Positions 10,916 to 51,098 of a DNA stretch of 64,000 bases are shown here, piece after piece. The notes below the pieces were generated by a model that saw only the letters and a list, made by a program, of their open reading frames with translations, did no database searches and had not been told where the DNA came from. Position 1 is the first letter of the stretch. Every line of letters begins with the position of its first letter. Origin of the DNA: an uncultured Actinomycetota bacterium (lineage in GTDB: Bacteria; Actinomycetota; Thermoleophilia; RBG-16-64-13); NCBI GenBank assembly GCA_963736705.1, contig CAVTPV010000001.1, forward strand, positions 485,232 to 549,231. Reading direction: 5' to 3'. The position numbers were made by a program, and so were the translations under genes.

Positions 10916-10971
10916 CGCCGGCGCCGAAGCGACCGCGCCGCGAGGCGCGAGGCTACCTCATAGAACGACCG

Positions 10972-11005
10972 AAGGCCGGGGGCCAAAACCCCCGGCCTTC
11001 TTCTT
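10972..11005 (+). terminator. rho-independent terminator
   Basis: AAGGCCGGGGG-CCAAAA-CCCCCGGCCTT followed by CTTCTTT. Confidence 0.65.
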
Positions 11006-11048
11006 TGGCACCGTGCCTCCGGTGCCGCGGCTCCTACCGCAAAGGAAA

Positions 11049-11075
11049 GGCCCGAGGGGCGATGCCCCTCGGGCC
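11049..11075 (-). terminator. hairpin terminator candidate for the cyclase operon
   Basis: GGCCCGAGGGG-CGATG-CCCCTCGGGCC; on the minus strand it is followed by TTTCCTTTG. Confidence 0.5.
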
Positions 11076-11155
11076 CTATGAGTCCCGAATCTGGAGACGG
11101 CGGGTCTGCCGCGCCGCGGCGGCGCTTCGCGCCCCGCGGCCGCGCTCAGCGCCCC

Positions 11156-21263: not shown

Positions 21264-23063
21264 CCTCCCCGCGCGGCGCCCGTGTCGGCCCGGCGGCGCA
21301 GCGCAGCCGCCGCCCCGCTAGATGGTCGGGTACCCCTCCGGCGCCGGCTGCGGCCGGCCCGGACCCGGCATGATGGGCGTGCTGGCGTGCTTCTCGCCGC
21401 TTCTCCCACTCCTCCGGGATCCAGTTGTACTGGCGGTCGCCGATGTAGTTGGGGTCGTAGCGCTCGCGGATGCCGCGCTGGAAGACGTAGGTCCAGGGCT
21501 GCTTGGCTTTGGACCATTTGTCGAAGGCCTGCTCGTCGGTGTAGCGCATCTCTATGTAGAGGGCTTCCTTGCCGGGCGGGTAGTTGATGGTCTTGGCGTC
21601 CTCGACCGCGTCGTCCATGTGATACCAGGCGGCCCGGGTGGAGTCGCGATCCGCTCCGTCGTAGGAGACGAACTGCTCCAGGCCCATGATGCCGCCGCCC
21701 GGGTAGGCGCCCACGGTGCCCATCATGGAGTCGCCGCCGGCCTGCACGAGAAGGCCGTTGCGGTAGTCACGCTCGTAACCGGCCGCCGCCACGGGGATGT
21801 ATCCCTTGACCCAGTCGGGGGTGCCCGCCTGCATCCAACTTCCGATGTAGTTGCCGGCGTAGACGTAGTTGATCTCTTTGTGGCCCAGCCGGTTCATGTA
21901 CATGTTGGTGAACTCGGACATCTCGGGCGTGCAGTACTTCTCGACCTTCCAGCCGCCCACTTCCTCGAGGATCTTGTCGAGCACCTTGTCCTGGAGTTCG
22001 ATGTCGGCCTCGCTGCGCCCGGCCATGACGATCTGCAGGGAGATGCGCATCTCCTCGCGGAGTTCGTCCATGCCCGGCTGCGCCATGATCTCCGGGAGGT
22101 CGCTGAGCTGCTTGGTGGCGTCGTTGTACATGAGCCAGAACGCCGGGGCCAGCTCGGCGCCGGCCAGGTTGTACTGGCGGTGCAGCGTGTAGCCGATCTC
22201 GTTGTCGTAGATCTTGTAGTAGAGGTCGGTCCAGGCGTCCCAGTCGGGGACGGCCACGGTGTAGACCCGGAAGGTGTCGTCGATGGGCAGGCGGTAGGCC
22301 GGCACGGTGCCCTGCACGTCCCAGTCGGTGGAGCCGGGCCAATGGGCCAGGCGGATGGCGCACTTGGTGTAGACGCCCATGCCGCCGCGGCTGCCGAGGG
22401 TGCCGCGCATGATGCCGCGCACGCTGACGGGCCGGGGCCTTCGCTGAAGAACCAGCCGTCGCCGGAGCCGAGCGAGCCGTTGCGGACGATCTCGCCGCTG
22501 GGGGTGACCCATTCCATCCCGAGGACGTTCTCGGCGTTGCCGCCCATCCACATGGTGCCGGCCCCGATGCCCGAGTAGGCGCAGGTGGAGGCGACCACCG
22601 AGCAGGACGAGCCGGCGCCGATGATGTTGCAGCTCCAACCCCGCTTGATGGCCTCGGCGTGCAGCTGCGCGTGGATGACGTACGGCCCCACGATGGCGAT
22701 GCCGTTCTTCTCGTCGATCTCGATGTCGTTCATGCGGCGCATGTCGAGCTGGACGGTGTCTTTCTCGTCGCCGTAGCGGGTGCCCGGGTCGTACATCGGC
22801 GAGGCCCAGTGGTACCAGCCGGTGCCGTGCGGCTTGACCCCGAAGTTGTACTTGTTGGCCGCCTTGACGATGGCCTGCACCTCTTCGGTGGAGCCCGGCA
22901 TGGCGATGGCTCCGGCGCGGGGCATGTAGTGGCTGGCGTTGGGCCGCACCAGCTCGACCAGCATCTGCAGGGCATACCCGTCGAGGATGGCCGGGTCGCG
23001 GGTGACGTTCCGTTCGCCCACGATGGCCTGGAGGGCTTCGTACGCTTCATTTGAAAGTGCCAT
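21235..23063 (-). pseudogene. FAD-binding (PCMH/VAO-GlcD-type) oxidoreductase, frame break near 22430; 3' end ambiguous
   Basis: N-terminal part in ORF 21894..23063 (MALSNEAYEALQAIVGERNVT...); the rest in ORF 21235..22638. An alternative frame gives ...EKHASTPIMPGPGRPQPAPEGYPTI with a stop at 21318-21320. Confidence 0.7.
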
Positions 23064-39899: not shown

Positions 39900-39937
39900 A
39901 GACGAACCAGGAATCCCCGACCAGGAGGAACGACCGA

Positions 39938-40269: not shown

Positions 40270-40777
40270 ATGGCCGACGACGACCACCCGCCACATCGCG
40301 TTCATCTGTTCGAAGGGCGATCTGGACATGGCCTATCCCGCGCTGGTCATGGGCTGGGCCGCGCTCGGCAACGGCGTGGACGTGAGCATCTTCTTCACGT
40401 TCTGGGGCCTGGACATGATCACCAAGCACCGGATCGACAAGCTGCAGCTCGCCCCGGTGGCCAACACCAGCATGAAGATGAGCATGATGATGCCGTTACC
40501 GAAGAACTGGGGCATCCCCAACCTCATGGGCGTCCTCCCGGGCATGACCCGCTTCGCCACGTGGATGATGCGCAAGAAGATCAAGGAGGTCGGCGCCCCG
40601 CCGGTGCGCGAGTACCTGGAGATGATGCAGGACGGCGGCGCCAAGCTCTACGCCTGCAAGATGAGCTGCGACATGATGGGCCTCGGCAAGGGGGACTTCA
40701 TCGACGGGGTCATCGACGGCACCACGGCCGCCGACTTCATCGACATGACCGAGGGGGCGCAGATCGTCTTCATCTAG
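40270..40777 (+). pseudogene. DsrE/DsrF-like (DrsE_2-type) protein, frame break within the first 10 codons
   Basis: ATG 40270 (MADDDHP) runs in one frame. The conserved ...HIAFICSKGDLDMAYPALVMGWAALGNGVDVSIFFTFWGL... runs in the +1 frame (ORF 40328..40777 lacks this strand). Confidence 0.7.
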
Positions 40778-40886
40778 GAGTGGGGACGGCGCCACGCCTG
40801 GCGCGGATTGAGGATTCTCGTGAGGGCCGGAGCACGCCGCTTCGGCCCTCTTGGTTTGCCGGCCCGAGATCCTGTTGCCCCAAGTA

Positions 40887-40916
40887 TTGACAGGTGACGC
40901 TATCTACGTATATCAT
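40887..40916 (+). promoter_or_regulatory. sigma70-like promoter with imperfect palindrome (ArsR operator candidate)
   Basis: TTGACA (40887-40892), then a 16-nt spacer and TATATC, or an 18-nt spacer and TATCAT. The dyad TATCTAC|GTATATA (40901-40914) overlaps the -10. Confidence 0.5.
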
Positions 40917-40958
40917 CAACTCTGCAAATACGGGATTGCAGGAGTGGCCTCGGTGGAT

Positions 40959-41468
40959 ATGCGCCCTCTCTTCAAGTTGCACGCTTCGGTCTGCCAAGCT
41001 CTTTCGAGCGAGCACCGCTTGGCCATCATGTACGGCCTCAAGGAAGGCGAGCGCCGGGTGAGCGACATCGCCGACGACCTGGGCATCTCCGTGCACAACG
41101 TCTCCCAGCACCTGCGCATCCTGCGGCAGGCTCTTCTGGTCAAGCCTCGCAAAGAGGGCCAGACGGTCTACTACTCCATCGCCAATCCCAAGTTCATGGA
41201 AGCCTGCGCCCTCATGCGCCAGGCCCTGCTCGAAGAGCACCAGGCCGAGGGTACGGCGCTCCACGCCGCCGCCGGGAGTGTTCGACCCCGTGGCGGCCAT
41301 GTCCACCATGTACGAGAACGGCATCGACGCGGATCACGATTCCGCGGGCAAACCGGCAACGACCCCCGAATCAGGCGCAAACGCATAACGAGCGATCAAC
41401 CGAGCAACGTTCGGACGAAAGGAAGACGATCATGGACCTCTCCACACTCAAAGGCGACAAAGTCGTAG
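40959..41468 (+). CDS. ArsR/SmtB-family transcriptional regulator (3' tail uncertain)
   Basis: LSSEHRLAIMYGLKEGERRVSDIADDLGISVHNVSQHLRILRQALLVKPRKEGQTVYYSI. The Arg-rich tail after about residue 110 overlaps the tusA start and may be out of frame. Confidence 0.7.
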   Translation: MRPLFKLHASVCQALSSEHRLAIMYGLKEGERRVSDIADDLGISVHNVSQHLRILRQALLVKPRKEGQTVYYSIANPKFMEACALMRQALLEEHQAEGTALHAAAGSVRPRGGHVHHVRERHRRGSRFRGQTGNDPRIRRKRITSDQPSNVRTKGRRSWTSPHSKATKS

Positions 41469-41677
41469 ACGCGCGCGGCACCTCCTGCCCCGGCCCCATC
41501 CTGGCCGCGAAGAAGGGCATGGCCGACGTCAAGGTCGGCGAGATCATGGAAGTGCTCGCCACCGACTCCGGCACCCAGAAGGACCTGCCCGCCTGGTCCA
41601 AGAAGCTGGGCCACGAGTACCTCGGTTTCGTCGAAGAGCCCGGCTACATGAAGCTCTTCGTCAAGAAGCTCAAGTAA
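41432..41677 (+). CDS. TusA-family sulfurtransferase
   Basis: 81 aa. VVDARGTSCPGPILAAKKGM carries the conserved CPxP active-site motif. Confidence 0.85.
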   Translation: MDLSTLKGDKVVDARGTSCPGPILAAKKGMADVKVGEIMEVLATDSGTQKDLPAWSKKLGHEYLGFVEEPGYMKLFVKKLK

Positions 41678-41701
41678 CGCACGGACGACCAAGGACCGGC
41701 C

Positions 41702-42153
41702 GTGACCGCAAGCGCGGGGTTCGCCCCCAAGATACTGGTCTTCTCGACCAACAACATCTCCGATCCGGGGATCGACCTGGCGGGTAGCTCGCATCTGCAC
41801 TACTCGCCGACCGTCATGGTCATCAGCATGCCCTGCACCAGCGGCATCCGGCCGGATTGGATCCTGTACGCCATCGAGCAGGGGTTCGATGGCGTCTTCA
41901 TCGCGTCGGACGGGGAGGAGTGCGCCTTCCTGCCCGACTGCGCGGAGCGGAGTTCGCACATCATGGCCAGCGCTCAGGAGATGCTGAAGGAGCGAGGGCC
42001 ACGAGCCCCGGCGGGTGAAGATGGCCGCCGTCTGCTCGGTGTGCGCCGACCCGTTCGTCAACTACATGGGCGAGTTCTCCAAGGCGCTCGCGGAGCTCGG
42101 GCCCTCCACCGACCGGGCCCGCGGCCGGACCGTCCGAGGAGCAGGCCGCATGA
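41702..42153 (+). pseudogene. MvhD-like (methyl-viologen-reducing hydrogenase delta-type) FeS protein, about 2 frame breaks
   Basis: KILVFSTNNISDPGIDLAG...VISMPCTSGIRPDWILYAIEQGFDGVFIASDGEECAF, then ..PRRVKMAAVCSVCADPF in another frame. One frame ends in a TGA overlapping the next ATG (ATGA at 42150-42153). Confidence 0.7.
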
Positions 42154-44916
42154 AGTACGACGCGCTGGTCATCGGCAGCGGCATCAGCGGCATGGAGTCC
42201 GCCCTCAAGCTCGGCGACATGGGCTACAAGGTGCTGGTGGTCGAGAAGGAGGCCAGCGTCGGCGGCAAGATGATCCTGCTGAGCAAGGTCTTCCCCACGC
42301 TCGACTGCGCCAGCTGCATCTCCACGCCCAAGATGGGCGCCACCATCCACCATCCCAACCTCGACGGTGCTCACCTACTCCGAGGTGGACAGCATCGAGC
42401 GCCAGAACGGCGAGCTTCAAGGCCAAGATCAAGCAGAAGGCCCGCTTCGTGGACGAGGAGGCCTGCACCGGCTGCCGGCAGTGCGAGATGGTCTGCAGCG
42501 TGGCCGTGCCCGACGAGTTCAACGCCGACCTGGTGTCGCGCCGGGCGGCCTACATCGCCTTCCCGCAGGCGGTGCCCAAGAAGGCCGTCATCGAGCGGCG
42601 AGGGCACCTCGCCCTGCACCTACACCTGCCCGGCGGGCATCAAGGCCCACGGGTACGTGGCGCTCACCCGCAGCGGCGAGTACGAGAAGGCCTTCCAGCT
42701 CGTGGCCGACGCCACCCCGTTGGTGGGCAGCCTGGGCCGGGCCTGCTACGCGCCCTGCGAAGAGGAGTGCACGCGGGGAGACCTCGAGGGCCCGGTGAAC
42801 ATCCGGCGCATCAAGCGCTTCCTGGCCGACACCCACTACGCCAAGCCGAGGGTGGCGCCCGAGAAGCCGGCGCCCAACGGCAAGAAGGTGGCCGTCGTCG
42901 GCTCGGGCCCGGCGGGCCTCACCGCCGCCTGGCACCTGGCCCGCAAGGGCTACGAGGTCAAGATCTTCGAGGCGGCGCCGCTGGCCGGCGGCATGCTCCG
43001 CCTGGCCCTGCCGCCCTACCGGCTGCCCAGCGAGGTGGTCGACGAGGACGTGGCCAACGTCACCGACCTCGGCGTGACGATCGTCACCGACACCAAGGTC
43101 GAGGACCTGGAGGCCCTCAAGGCCGAGGGCTACGACGCCGTGCTGGTCGCCATCGGCACCCATCTGGGCACCAAGCTGCGGGTCCCCGGCGAGGACCTGC
43201 AGGGTGTGACTGCGCGCCACCGAGTTCCTCCGGGCCGCCAAGCTCGGCGAGCCGCTCGAGGTGGAGGGCAAGCGCGTGGTGGTCATCGGCGGCGGCAACG
43301 TGGCCATCGACGCGGCCCGCACCGCGCTCCGCCTGAAGGCCGCTTCGGTGCGAGGTGCTCAGCCTGGAATCGCTGCAGCAGATGCCGGCCCACGCCTGCA
43401 GGAGATCGCAGGAGGCCAAGCCGGAGGGCGTCACCTTCCGCAACTCCTGCGGCGTGCGCAACTTCGAGGGCGACGGACAGCGTCCGGAGCATCGTGCCCG
43501 ATGCGCTGCGTGTCCGTGTTCGACGAGAAGGGCCGCTTCAGCCCCAAGTACTCCGACAAGACGCTCGGGCACCATCGAGTGCCGACCTGGTGATCGTGGC
43601 CGCCGGCATGCGGCCCGACTCGGGCGAGTTCGGCCTGCCGATCAACCCCTCCGGCACCATCAGGTCGACGCAGCGACACCCTGCAGACCGAGCATACCCT
43701 ACGTGTTCGCCGCGGGCGACGTGGTGCTGGGCCCGTCCATGATCACCACCGCGGCCGGCCACGGCCGCCGGGCGGCGTACTTCATGGACCGCTGGCTGCA
43801 GGGCCAGCCCATCGACGCGCTACGACCTCGACACCCCGCTCCCGATCGTGGACAAGGCCGACGTGCTCGGCCGGCAGATGACCTGCTACCGGGAGATCAC
43901 GCCCAAGCGGCCCGCGCGAGATCGTGCAGGCTGGCCCCGGGCGAGTTCTATCCCGACGAGGAGACCCTCACCGAAGACGAGGCCTCTGCCTGCACCGGCC
44001 GCTGCCTCGACTGCGGCGTCTGCTCGCGAGTGCCACGCGTGCGTGGACATCTGCCCGGCCGACTGCATCGACCTGAACATGAAGGGCGAGGAGATCGAGG
44101 TCGAGGTGGACGCGGTGGTCCTCGCCACCGGCTACACGCTCTTCCCGGCCGAGCTCAAGCCGCAGTACGGCTACGGCAAGTACAAGAACGTCATCACCGG
44201 CATGCAGATGGACCGCCTGCTGGCCCCCACCCGGCCGTACAACGCGCGTGGTGCGCCCGGGCGACGGCAAGGTGCCCGACAACATCGCCTTCATCCTCTG
44301 CACCGGCTCCCGCGACGAGACCCTCGGCAACCCGCTCTGCTCGCGCATCTGCTGCATGTACTCCGTCAAGCACAACCAGCTGATCATGGGCGCGCTGCCG
44401 CTGGCCGACGTCACCGTCTACTACATGGACATCCGCACGCCGGGCAAGGGCTACGACGAGTTCTACGAGCAGGCCAAGGCCATGGGCGCCAACTTCGTGA
44501 AGGGCCGCGTGGCCGAGCGTCACCGAGAAGGAGGACGGCAACCTGGTCCTCACGCTACGAGGACATCGAGAACGGCACCCTCACCGAGGCGGAGCACGAC
44601 CTGGTGGTGCTCGCGGTGGGCGTGCGGCCCAACGACGAAGCGCGCCCACGCTGTTCGCCGACGGCGAGCTGGCGCTGGACGACTACGCCTACGTGGGCGA
44701 AGCCGACGAGGACATGAACCCCGGCGCCACCAACATCCCCGGCGTGTTCGTGGCCGGCGTCGGCCTCGGGCGTCAAGGACATCCCCGATTCGATCCTTCA
44801 CGCGGGCGCCGCGGCGGCGCAGGCGGCCGCTCACCTGGAGAGCAAGCGGACGGCCGGCCGAGACGGCGGCCGACGCCGGCGACCGAGCCGCGACGTCGCG
44901 GAGGTGGCGCCGATGA
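42150..44916 (+). pseudogene. large HdrA-like flavoprotein interrupted by a GltD/NfnB-like NAD(P)H module (HdrL-like), many frame breaks
   Basis: Read across frames: KYDALVIGSGISG, CASCISTPKM, CTGCRQCEMVC. Then the GltD-like block: CPAGIKAHGYV, KKVAVVGSGPAGLTAAWHLARKGYEV, VVVIGGGNVAIDAAR, VFAAGDVV. Then CTGRCLDCGVCSECHACVDICP. Then the HdrA C-part: FILCTGSRD, CSRICCMYSVK, GVFVAGV..KDIPDSI. Confidence 0.7.
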
Positions 44917-46733
44917 GCACCGAGACCGGCAAGCGGCGCATCGGCGTCTACGTCTGCCATTGCGGCGGCAACATCTCCGACTACGTCGACGTGGACAAGG
45001 TGGTCGCGGCGCTGGAGGGCGACCCGGACGTGGTGGTGGCCAAGACGGCCATGTTCACCTGCTCCGACGCCACCCAGCAGGAGATCATCGAGGACATCCA
45101 GGAGCAGGGCCTCGACGGCATCGTCGTGGCCTCCTGCTCGCCCAAGCTGCACACCTTCACCTTCCGCGAGGTGGCCAAGCGGGCGGGGCTCAGCCCCTTC
45201 CAGTACACCCAGGTGAACGTCCGCGAGCAGTGCTCCTGGACCCACACCGACGACCACGAAGGCGCCACCGACAAGGCCACCAAGCTGGTCAAGGCCGGCA
45301 TCGGCCGCACCCGGCTGACGGTGCCGCTGGAGCCGATCGTCGTGGAGACGGTGCCCAAGGCGGTCGTCATCGGCGGCGGCATCACCGGTCTGCGGGCGGC
45401 CCTCGGGCTGGCCGAGATCGGCCTCGCGCGTGTTCCTGGTGGAGAAGGAGGCGCAGCTCGGCGGCTGGGCCGCCGGGTTCGGCGAGATGTACCCGTACGG
45501 CAAGAACGGCCGGGAGCTGGTGGCCGAGCTGATCGAGAAGGTGCGCGGCAACCCGGACATCACGGTGTTCACGAACGCCGAGGTCACCGGCAAGGCCGGC
45601 AGCTTCGGCAACTACGAGGTGGCCATCCGGGTGAACGGCGGCGCCGGCGAAGCCGCGGCCGAGCGCCGAGACCATCACCGTGCGAGGCGGGCTCCATCAT
45701 CGTGGCCACCGGCTTCGACGCCTACCCGGTGGCCGAGGACGAGTTCGGCTACGGCCTGGACGGCGTGGTCACGCTGCCCGAGTTCAAGCAGCTGGTGGAC
45801 GGCGCCGAGCGGCCCGCTCGCAGTACGACGGCAAGCCGGTCAAGAACATCGTCTACATCTACTGCGTGGGCAGCCGGCAGGACGCGGACGAGGTGGACGA
45901 CGCCCACGAGTACTGCTCCCGCTACTGCTGCACGGCCGCGGTGCACGCCTCCCTCGCAGGTGGCGGCCAAGCCCGGGCAAGCGTCCACCAGTACCACCTG
46001 CACCGCGACATCCGCACCTACGGCAAGTACGAGATGCTGTACGACGAGTCGCTCAACAAGGGCTCCGTCTACCTCAAGGTGCCCGACGACGAGCCGCCGG
46101 TGGTGACGCGCGACGACGAAGACCGGCCGCCTGCTGGTGACCACCCGCGACCTTCTGAGCCGAGGGCGAGGAGATCGAGATCCTGGCCGACCTGGTGGTG
46201 CTGGTCACCGGCATGGTGCCGCGCGAGAACGACGACCTGATCAAGACCCTCAAGCTGCCCGTGGGCAAGGGCGGCTTCTTCAACGAGATCCATCCCAAGC
46301 TGCGCCCGGTGGAGACCGTGGTCGACGGCGTCTACATCTGCGGCACCTGCCAGCAGCCGAAGAACTCGGCCGAGGCGGTCGCCTCCGGCCTGGCGGCGGT
46401 CACGCAGAGCGCCTCCATCCTCAAGCGCGGCTTCGCCGAGCTCGACCCGCTGGTCGCCATGGTCGACACGGACCTCTGCACCTGGTGCGGCACTGTGCCT
46501 GGAGGCCTGCCCCTACGACGCGCCCCGGCAGGTGGAGGAGGACGGCAAGAAGGTCGCGCTTCATCGACAAGACCGCCTGCAAAGGCTGCGGCGGCTGCGT
46601 GCCCGGTCTGCCCGGTCAAGACGCCATCGACCTCGAGGGCTACACCGACGCCCAGATCCGGGCCATGATCGACGGCCTGCTGTCGGAGCCGGCGAATGCC
46701 CGGATGCGTGACCGCAGGAGGTGCTCGGCATGA
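44913..46733 (+). pseudogene. hdrA: HdrA-like heterodisulfide-reductase subunit A flavoprotein, about 8 frame breaks
   Basis: ATG 44913 after GGAGGTG. IGVYVCHCGGNISDY, AVVIGGGITG, YIYCVGSRQ, CSRYCC, GVYICGTCQQPK, and a C-terminal CKGCGGCVPVCP-like ferredoxin motif. The stop overlaps the next ATG (ATGA at 46730-46733). Confidence 0.75.
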
Positions 46734-47028
46734 GCACGCCTGAATACTGCGCCGGCAGCCGGCGCGAGCGACGCCGGAAGCCCCGGCACCGCGATCCGTC
46801 CGCGAGATCATCCGCGACGAGCAGATCATGCGGGCGCCGCATCCTCAAGCTGCTCGACGACGGCGCCTCTGACCATCCCCGAGATCGCCGAGGCCTCGGG
46901 CGTCCCGACGTCACGAGGTGACCTTCTGGGTCATGGGCATGCGCAAGTACGGCTAGGTGCGCGAGGACAAAGAGGTCACCGACGAGGGCTACTTCCGGTA
47001 CCAGGCGATCGAGAGAGAGATCGGATGA
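46730..47028 (+). pseudogene. small winged-helix-like protein with frame breaks and an in-frame TAG
   Basis: ATG 46730 after GCAGGAGG. Pieces: ..ILKLLDDG.., ..IPEIAEASGVP.., ..EVTFWVMGMRKYG-TAG-VREDKEVTDEGYFRYQAIEREIG. The stop overlaps the next ATG (ATGA at 47025-47028). Confidence 0.4.
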
Positions 47029-48202
47029 CCACGCGACTTGAATCCCGAGCTCGTCGACGACCTCGGCGCCTGTACGGCGCCGAGGACGTGCAGAAGTGCT
47101 ACAACTGCGGCAACTGCACGGCCACCTGCTCGCTCGCCGACCAGCACGACAACTTCCCGCGCAAGTGCATGCACGCCCTGCAGATGGGCATGGAGAAGAA
47201 GCTCAAGGGCAGCCTGGAGCCCTGGCTCTGCTACTACTGCGGCGAGTGCTCCACGGACTGCCCGCGGGAGGCCTCAGCCGGGCGAGACCATGATGAGCCT
47301 GCGCCGCTGGTTGACCGTCGCGCTATGACTTCACCGGCATCGGCCGCCTGTTCTACCGGCGCCCGTGGATCGAGATCGCTCGTGGTGATCATCGTGGCCC
47401 TGCTCACCGGCGTCGGCTTCACCCTGTTCGGCGTGTTCGGCGGCGACATCCACCAGTACACCGGCGAGAACTCGTTCCTGCCGGCGGAGACCGTCCACAT
47501 CTTCGACTGGATCCTCGGCGGCGGTGCTGCTGGCCTTCCTCATCCCCAACATGATCCGCATGTGGTGGTTCACGCTCGGCCGGGACACCCTGGGCCGGGA
47601 CCGCACCAGGCAAGCTGCCGCGCATGCGCCTACCTCAAGTCCGTCTACCTGTTCCCGCTGCACTTCATGACCCAGAAGCGCTACGCGCAGTGCGAGCGCA
47701 AGCGGCCCTGGGTGATCCACCTGGCTCTGATGCTGAGCTACGTGACCATGCTCATGCTCATCATGTTCTTCCTCAAGTACATGTGGAACGGGCCCAAGAT
47801 CGACTGGCGCGTGCACGTGTTCGGCTACCTGGCCAGCGCCGGCCTGATCGCCGGCGACCACTCTGGGCGCATCGTCGGCCGCCTCAAGAAGATGGAGGCG
47901 CAGCTACAAGCACTCCCACGAGAGCGACTGGATGTTCCTGATCCTGCTGCTGGTGGTGGCGCTCACCGGGGTGCTGCAGCACGTGCTGCACCGCGCCGGC
48001 GCCGACGTGGCGGCCAACGTCTCCTACGTCGTGCACCTGATGGCGGTGGTCCCGATGCTGGGACTGGAGGTGCCCTTCAGCAAGTGGTCGCACATGGCCT
48101 ACCGGCCGCTGGCCATGTACTTCTCGGTGCTCCGCAAGCAGATCGTGCCGGTACCGGCCGAAGAAGAGGCGCCCGAGCGGCATGCAGACCGAAGCCGCCT
48201 GA
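47025..48202 (+). pseudogene. QmoC-like protein: HdrC-type di-cluster domain fused to an HdrE/NarI-type multi-TM domain, about 8 frame breaks; 3' end uncertain
   Basis: CYNCGNCTATC and CYYCGECSTDCP, then hydrophobic helices (LVVIIVALLTGVGFTLFGVF, VIHLALMLSYVTMLMLIMFFL, WMFLILLLVVALTGVL, VVHLMAVVPMLGL) spread over frames. Candidate stop at 48200-48202. Confidence 0.6.
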
Positions 48203-48240
48203 CCGACGACCCGACCCGAGATCGCGACAGAAGGAGTCCC

Positions 48241-48721
48241 ATGGCAGACACCCACCAAGAAGACCATCATCCTGTTCAGCGGCGACTTCGACAAAGTCAT
48301 GGCCGCCCTCATCATCGCCAACGGCGCTGCCGCGATGGGCGACGACGTCACCATCTTCTGCACCTTCTGGGGCCTCAACGCGCTCCGCAAGCCGCAGAAG
48401 GTCAAGGCGAAGAAGAAGTTCCTGCAGGGCATGTTCGGCATGATGATGCCGCGCGGCGTCAACAAGCTCGGCATGTCGAAGATGAACTTCGCCGGCATGG
48501 GCCCGCAGATGATGGGCATGGTCATGAAGGGCGAGGGCGCCATGACCCTGCAGCAGCTCCTCGACGCGGCCATCGAGCAGGGCGTCAAGCTGGTGGCCTG
48601 CACCATGACCATGGACCTGCTGGGCTTCAAGAAGGAAGAGCTGCTGGACGGCGTCGAGTACGCCGGCGTGGCCGCCTATCTGGGCGAAGCCGACGAGGCG
48701 AACGTCAACCTGTTCATCTAG
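48241..48721 (+). pseudogene. DsrE/DsrF-like (DrsE_2-type) protein, paralog of 40270..40777, frame break within the first 6 codons
   Basis: AAGGAG then ATG 48241 (MADT..). The conserved KKTIILFSGDFDKVMAALIIANGAAAMGDDVTIFCTFWGL runs in the +1 frame. Removing one C from the CCC at 48251-48253 restores the frame. Confidence 0.7.
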
Positions 48722-50651: not shown

Positions 50652-51098
50652 ATGAAGCGATTCGGCCGATGGACGGTACCCCTGACGGGTGTGGGCGTTG
50701 TCGCCCTCGTCGCCCTTGCCGCCTTCCTCATCCTCGACTTGAGCAGCCGCTCGGTGGACCCGTCGTCACTCCCGGTCATCCAACTGGGGCAGACGGGAAC
50801 AAGCCAATCAGGCCAGAACACGCCCGGGTCTGGAACCGCGGGTCAGGGCCCCGGGCCGGGCCAGTCCACCGGCGACCCGGGCACGTCCACCACCGTGGCG
50901 CCGGGACCGGGCGTCACCTCGGTGACGGCGGCGGGCGCTACCTCAACGACCACGACGCCAGGAGGGTCCACCACCACGGGCAGTACCGTCCGCGAGACCA
51001 TCAACGGGGGCGTGCATACTGGGACCACCGGCGGCACGAGTTCCAGCGGGACGACCGGGACTTCGACAGGATCGACAGGATCGACCGGAGGACGGTGA
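50652..51098 (+). CDS. membrane-anchored low-complexity (Gly/Thr/Ser/Pro-rich) protein
   Basis: MKRFGRWTVPLTGVGVVALVALAAFLILDL anchor, then a disordered G/T/S-rich tail. The stop lies 4 nt before the response-regulator ATG. Confidence 0.45.
   Translation: MKRFGRWTVPLTGVGVVALVALAAFLILDLSSRSVDPSSLPVIQLGQTGTSQSGQNTPGSGTAGQGPGPGQSTGDPGTSTTVAPGPGVTSVTAAGATSTTTTPGGSTTTGSTVRETINGGVHTGTTGGTSSSGTTGTSTGSTGSTGGR

Follow-up and report, generated by a model that had tools for sequence, protein, structure and literature searches.

Frameshifts caused by insertions and deletions (indels) in long-read assemblies are well described; they are worse in low-coverage bins and are removed by accurate reads (PMC9262707; 10.1101/2021.08.23.457338; PMC12007338), and related strains are known to share long near-identical DNA (PMC9262707). 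Here we describe a 64,000-nucleotide stretch of the genome of an uncultured Actinomycetota bacterium (Thermoleophilia, RBG-16-64-13; assembly GCA_963736705.1, contig CAVTPV010000001.1), referred to below as the window, which contains at 41.4–48.7 kb a sulfur-relay locus with an Hdr/Qmo-like operon whose reading frames are repeatedly broken. The window corresponds to G000:C1:485,232–549,231, and the parent assembly, G000, comprises 3.23 Mb in 6 contigs with an estimated completeness of 71%. The frame breaks are almost certainly an assembly artefact, and we consider it fairly probable that they were left in the consensus when noisy long reads of a metagenome were assembled, and that they are concentrated in strain-variable and poorly supported segments.

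The breaks were counted with two methods. A frameshift-aware protein-versus-DNA aligner, using the intact same-genus orthologues of genomes G004 and G001 as references, detects 51 frame shifts between 41,702 and 48,193, in five co-transcribed genes, together with a single in-frame stop at 46954; there is one shift in a FlpD/MvhD-like gene, 21 in gene A, 15 in gene B, three in a small open reading frame (ORF) and 11 in gene C (all described below), and the amino-acid identities to the orthologues are 76–86%. A reference-free codon-usage Viterbi model, with close pairs merged, gives 28 events in 41.9–48.3 kb (4.4/kb) against 25 in the remaining 57.6 kb (0.43/kb), a 10-fold difference (binomial P = 7e-15); its totals are lower than those of the aligner because close pairs are not resolved. 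As a negative control, the model was applied to 20 kb of G004, a many-contig genome, and no real event was found there. The error-dense block spans 42,300–48,250 and has ~4.3 detectable frame changes/kb, compared with 0.43–0.51/kb in its flanks. These values agree well with the preliminary description of the window, made from the sequence alone, which had estimated 35–45 frame changes at 41.9–48.3 kb, 25–30 in the other 57 kb, and a more than 10-fold concentration in the operon. The compensating pairs that it reported near 43385 and at 47035–47070 are real, each being a +1 followed by a +2 shift (43352 with 43399, and 47037 with 47071–72), and the long intact genes it saw elsewhere are matched by break-free stretches such as 9.3–17.3 kb and 25.7–35.2 kb.

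Accurate sequence obtained independently from the same population does not contain the indels. This natural population (S1) is represented by contigs from four independent short-read-era metagenomes (X11, X4, X12 and X3), in pieces of ≤3.6 kb with 98–99.5% identity to the window and a depth of 5–10. Outside of the block, the S1 contigs lack one letter of the window at 2132, 2651, 4191, 6657, 7492, 8242 and 9246, and again at 21401, 35240, 35583, 38858, 39783, 39806 and 41272; between one and four of the runs cover each of these sites, and wherever a run does so its entire depth (100%) is without the letter. A missing letter at 39901/39903 is placed at adjacent positions by different runs. Eleven of the left-out sites match blind Viterbi predictions (2132, 4191, 6658, 7494, 8245, 9242, 21399, 35243, 35583, 38858 and 41277), and the opposite case, in which the window itself lacks a letter, is seen at a few sites only (e.g. 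37747). Inside the operon the natural contigs are short, and all of those crossing a predicted site, at least nine sites in total, are without the extra base. In gene A the bases at 44026, 44515, 44551 and 44759 are left out in metagenome contigs, base 46601 in gene B is left out in three metagenomes (at depths of 10.3/10.3, 27.2/33.9 and 13.5/13.5), and the letters at the predicted +1 and +2 sites of gene C, 47040, 47072 and 47074, are missing from an X3 contig. At the FlpD site (41999) a JGI contig, L103, is one base shorter (GGG-C versus GGGC in the window), and other metagenome pieces end at insertion sites, for example 45429, 45800 and 45957. Because the crossing contigs do not have them, the extra bases are not part of the DNA of the organism. 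Several metagenomes of 2012–2017, the source of the S1 contigs, contain the clean segment at 17.5–23.5 kb with 31-mer shares of 0.42–0.59, and in run X3 the share is 0.59 for this segment versus 0.06 for the error-dense block; the best share of the block's 31-mers in any of the listed runs is 0.09, and no candidate source run was found among them.

Other differences from metagenome contigs lie in different parts of the window. Compared with three independent metagenomes, the window has a cluster of additional letters at 21274–21286 (1+1+1+6) and one more at 21401, in an otherwise clean stretch. At 10970–11144 a cluster of letters found in contigs of X3 and X11 (G, T, G, GCCG and C) is missing from the window, and the AT skew of 0.35 at 10–11 kb is unusual. 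At 50863 the X11 and X12 contigs hold 21 additional in-frame letters, representing either real variation or an assembly deletion.

The types of change in the operon are strongly biased. In a five-genome alignment the indels private to the window are 34 1-nt and 8 2-nt insertions with almost no deletions. The inserted single bases (C 15, G 12, T 4 and A 3) mirror the base composition, and only eight of the 42 insertions extend a run of the identical base, indicating that this is not a homopolymer-type error. The earlier impression that a break is often an extra C or G beside the same base therefore survives as to the extra bases, 27 of the 34 single ones being C or G, and fails as to their neighbours. 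A sequence or methylation motif at the break sites had also been suggested, and none was found around 87 insertion sites from four affected genomes (Kullback–Leibler divergence ≤0.05 bit per position, and no trinucleotide enriched beyond base composition); because these 87 sites have no positional information, methylation-motif error, slippery sites and quadruplet codons are excluded. The insertions have no preference for wobble-adjacent positions (13/10/9). Substitutions private to the window are spread almost evenly over the three codon positions (38/31/49, compared with 15/10/73 in G002), and we read this near-even spread as ~1.5–2.5% of error-like substitutions in addition to the insertions.

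The operon is not a unique hot spot, as several blocks of the genome are error-dense. The Viterbi model finds 2,657 non-boundary frame changes in the whole G000 genome (0.82/kb), with a ratio of skip-1 to skip-2 events of 2217:440, or ~5:1 in favor of insertions. Their spacing is over-dispersed, with 32% of the genome in gaps of more than 5 kb versus 8% under a Poisson expectation. The hdr block is within the top 4 of 1,282 5-kb windows by density, and equally dense blocks contain housekeeping genes, including PknB, FtsW/PBP and GlyS; Mqn/UbiD; SelA/SelB; and a NuoF–GltD fusion. Event density climbs with local G+C (0.15 events per 2 kb at the low end, 3.3 at the high end) and is autocorrelated over ~6 kb. 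Congeners assembled into few contigs also have shifts in the same operon (29 in G005, 13 in G002 and six in G001, mostly +1), and the flanks of the operon carry errors in these three genomes too. There are no shifts in the operons of G004, G007, G009, G012, G018 and G025, several of which are many-contig assemblies, so that the same type of error occurs throughout G000 and in its few-contig relatives, and not in these six clean genomes. The few-contig assemblies G005, G006 and G008 have completeness values of 57–69%. An unrelated ENA/NCBI locus from a metagenome-assembled genome (MAG; L104, contig_41381) contains breaks of the same insertion type, with 31 events in 20 kb, and insertion-type frame breaks appear to be widespread among the deposited MAGs of this group.

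A second hot block in G000 has a counterpart within the bin. The segment C5:666,062–683,522 (L018) contains 3.7 events/kb versus 0.7–0.8 in its flanks, and aligns end to end at 85–93% identity with an 18.2-kb contig of the same bin, C6 (L020). The twin 17.5-kb segment encodes housekeeping functions (PknB, FtsW/PBP, GlyS and others), and one copy is embedded in the 1.78-Mb contig C5. C6 is clean (0.17 events/kb), and its 31-mers are found at shares of 0.84 in X12, 0.78 in X3 and 0.73 in X11; the C5 hot block is not contained in any run. The two versions differ by 10, 7.2 and 22% at codon positions 1, 2 and 3, respectively, and the third-position excess indicates that the divergence is real; relative to C6, single bases are also added to the hot copy at 101 places and missing from it at 17. 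It follows that the C5 block is a diverged alternative version within the main contig, with the main population's version left as an orphan contig, an arrangement that suggests contig-level chimerism or a strain bubble. Parts of a 14.6-kb contig, C3 (L021), match C5:445,111–448,899 at 92–95%, where C5 is mildly error-enriched (1.3/kb), and C3 may be another alternative-haplotype contig.

Two explanations would make the breaks a property of the organism. The operon could be decaying, with the indels as true mutations, and the concentration of breaks in one operon is in keeping with this; relaxed selection would also fit the single in-frame stop and the near-even distribution of private substitutions over codon positions. 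Bacterial gene decay is, however, deletion-biased, and there are ~42 insertions here and ~0 deletions. There is also just one stop in ~2,110 codons in spite of 51 shifts, the amino-acid identity to G004 (80–86%) is the same as for the intact sister genomes, with no excess of protein divergence, every extra base that is crossed by natural contigs is missing from them, and indels of this type are found across the whole genome, essential genes (e.g. glyS and ftsW) included. Decay is thus very improbable, and is effectively excluded by the combination of insertion-only indels, one in-frame stop, normal protein identity and contigs without the extra bases; the preliminary description had thought an artefact likelier than decay, which these contigs support, and its reservation that pseudogenisation of the operon had to be kept open can be dropped. 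Programmed recoding, with numerous sites of +1 frameshifting or of quadruplet decoding, would account for nearly all of the events being +1 and for the frames being stop-free between them. It is scarcely credible, as the 87 sites share no codon, slippery sequence or motif, the sites are not conserved and the orthologous frames are uninterrupted, and natural populations of the same species are without the extra bases.

The clustering of the errors needs an explanation of its own, and strain or population heterogeneity is its probable cause. Single, essentially random extra bases, together with ~1–2.5% of error-like substitutions, are left in the consensus by one error process, which acts genome-wide at ~0.4–0.8 detectable events/kb and at 5- to 10-fold higher levels in blocks of 5–18 kb. 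These blocks would be segments in which co-occurring strains or species differ by ~7–15% and where the main path of the assembler may follow reads from a minority or from a mixture; both the effective coverage and the support for polishing would be low there, such that many raw-read insertions could survive in the consensus. The hdr/qmo block (~42.3–48.25 kb) would be one such segment. Long S1 contigs (98–99.5% identity) cover 35.0–41.76 kb and 48.69–55 kb and not the interior of the block, with two short pieces at 95–97% identity carrying coverage on to ~42.25 kb. A natural, S1-like contig, L023 (JGI20214J51088_10076651), is 94.5% identical to the window over the DrsE_2 gene and 98.9% identical from 48741 onwards, and upstream of DrsE (its positions 1–446, compared with window position 48247) it contains an HdrB/D-like CCG-domain gene instead of a QmoC-like gene. 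Two variants of the operon thus seem to exist in closely related populations, one with a QmoC-like membrane subunit and one with a CCG-domain protein; a loose end in run X4 shows that the window-like junction also occurs in nature. The frame-corrected gene A product has a best natural match of 87% among 5.8 billion proteins. Taken together, L023, the X4 junction and the 87% match lead us to infer a locus that varies between co-occurring strains and a consensus derived from minority or mixed reads, with a join that may be either a mis-assembly or a real recombinant strain. Of the technical causes raised in the preliminary description, strain mixture or low effective coverage has thus gained support, both from C6 and its C5 counterpart and from the loss of long contigs exactly over the block, and motif-specific error is refuted by the 87 insertion sites.

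The same artefact might instead be clustered for intrinsic or pipeline reasons, such as a GC-dependent error, a failed window of short-read polishing or a chance dip in long-read depth, and this we regard as rather unlikely. Event density is monotonic with local G+C, event counts are autocorrelated over only ~6 kb, which is roughly the scale of a read or polishing window, and the same operon is enriched 2- to 2.5-fold over its flanks in G005 and G002. There is no such enrichment in G001, however, and the block remains ~3.5 times above the expectation for its GC content; moreover, near-identical natural contigs are lost just at its edges, and the C5/C6 twin includes an equally dense block whose sequence is a diverged alternative and more than a GC-rich stretch. 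Some observations do weigh against strain heterogeneity. The bin contains no alternative (S1) copy of the hdr block, unlike the situation with C6 for the C5 block, and coverage and haplotype mixture in the block are presumed. Error density rises with G+C and the block is 69–70% GC, so that part of the excess may be intrinsic or may reflect higher detection power in GC-rich coding sequence. Homopolymer indels dominate in nanopore consensus (PMC9262707), which does not correspond to the insertion-only, non-homopolymer bias seen here. The inserted base is the relatives' alternative allele in the neighboring column in 17 of 29 cases versus 13.9 expected (P = 0.11, not significant), and 'SNP doubling', the writing of both alleles of a single-nucleotide polymorphism side by side at insertion sites, is not established at this level. 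A test for a blended consensus, in which window-private third-position changes amount to ~2.2% in the block (with the uniform component removed) versus 5.5% in a clean control, is a terminal-branch comparison that is suggestive only, because gene histories differ. It is also conceivable, albeit doubtful, that the error-dense blocks are not mis-joins but genuine operon-sized allelic replacements in the assembled strain, whole cassettes (hdr/qmo, cell-division and others) having been acquired by homologous recombination with congeners, in which case the clustering of errors would only flag imports that are unsupported and unpolished by reads of the dominant strain. Were this so, the population would be polymorphic for the third subunit, with either a QmoC-type membrane anchor or a soluble HdrB/D-like CCG protein as in L023.

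Several other identifications of the block were rejected. It is not a simple mosaic of the four sequenced congeners, as sliding windows have 80–95% identity to all four and there are no near-identical tracts. L104, whose FlpD is 96% identical, is not the main-population allele and belongs to another species (75–92% nucleotide identity) in addition to being error-laden itself, and L022 is intact but is a relative at 85% identity.

The genes of the sulfur-relay locus (TusA, FlpD/MvhD-like, A, B, the small ORF, C and DrsE_2, from Pfam matches) are all on the forward strand. At the left flank of the operon is an intact TusA sulfur-carrier gene (41432–41677; PF01206, E = 1.4e-21), and exactly the same protein sequence is encoded on two JGI contigs, L102 and L103, which are 96–97% identical to the window at 40753–42050. 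The FlpD/MvhD-like gene (41702–42122; PF02662, E = 2e-20) has one extra base at ~41996–41999, seen in the frameshift-aware alignment as a +1 shift at 41996 relative to the G004 orthologue (84% amino-acid identity). Gene A (42147–44906; ~915 aa, no stops among its 21 shifts) encodes an HdrA-like flavoprotein into which a GltD-like NAD(P)H module is inserted; it is 85.6% identical to the intact G004 protein, with mostly +1 shifts, and the intact orthologue has Pfam Pyr_redox_2, Fer4_20 and FAD_binding_2 matches. Gene B (44898–46729; ~605 aa, 15 shifts, no stops) encodes an HdrA/QmoB-like FAD and 2×[4Fe-4S] protein with Pyr_redox_2 and Fer4-family matches and 83% identity to the intact G004 protein. 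The winged-helix-like small ORF (46733–47022; ~92–97 aa) is 76% identical to its G004 counterpart, with +1 shifts at 46837, 46871 and 46914 and a change of W to stop at 46954; in intact natural contigs this ORF is conserved between B and C, 96–97 aa long, and translationally coupled. Gene C (47025–48193; ~388 aa, 11 shifts, no stops) is QmoC/HdrE-like, with an N-terminal 2×[4Fe-4S] segment (Fer4_17 and Fer4_8) and a membrane domain, and is 80% identical to the intact G001 protein. The right flank is an open DrsE_2 (DsrE/F-like) frame (48299–48721; PF13686, E = 5.9e-59). The ATGA stop/start overlaps noted previously are visible at the gene junctions, and both the gene order and the overlapping stop and start codons are present in intact natural contigs. 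A FlpD/MvhD protein, HdrA-like FAD/FeS subunits and a QmoC/HdrE-like FeS–membrane subunit thus occur together in one operon, as determined from Pfam, the orthologues and the pieces in the window. We conclude from these genes that the operon is a normal, presumably functional FlpD–HdrA/GltD–HdrA(QmoB)–winged helix-turn-helix (wHTH)–QmoC unit in a sulfur-relay locus (TusA, DsrE and DsrC), and that it should be treated as intact.

The finding bears on data quality and not on biology. In G000, apparently the representative of its species (one genome per species), no fewer than 2,650 frame breaks are false, and one or more blocks repeat a contig from the same bin. For G000, G005 and G002, and probably, judging by their completeness, for G006 and G008, gene calls are unreliable, as are counts of pseudogenes, fusion proteins and estimates of completeness, and it would be a mistake to claim that an Hdr/Qmo-like sulfur-relay complex has been inactivated in this lineage. 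A useful side result is that local frameshift density marks segments where an assembly does not represent the main population.

As in the QmoABC and HdrA–MvhD flavo-FeS complexes with a TusA–DsrE–DsrC relay, this locus has a FlpD/MvhD protein, two HdrA-like flavoproteins, a QmoC-like FeS and membrane subunit, and TusA- and DsrE-family neighbors. Unlike those complexes, it has a GltD-like NAD(P)H module in gene A and a small wHTH-like ORF between B and C. With respect to the assembly, G000 resembles strain or haplotype bubbles and chimeric consensus sequences in having two diverged 17.5-kb versions in one bin, one embedded (and matching no public run) and one orphaned; the embedded block may have been mis-joined or blended in the consensus, or may come from a genuine recombinant strain. 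The G000 errors differ from known long-read frameshifts in being almost insertion-only, mostly outside of homopolymers (compared with the homopolymer indels of PMC9262707) and clustered in multi-kb blocks. They are like them (PMC9262707; proovframe, 10.1101/2021.08.23.457338; Kastor, PMC12007338) in that consensus indels fragment the gene calls and lower the apparent completeness, and in that the true sequence is revealed by short reads from the same population.

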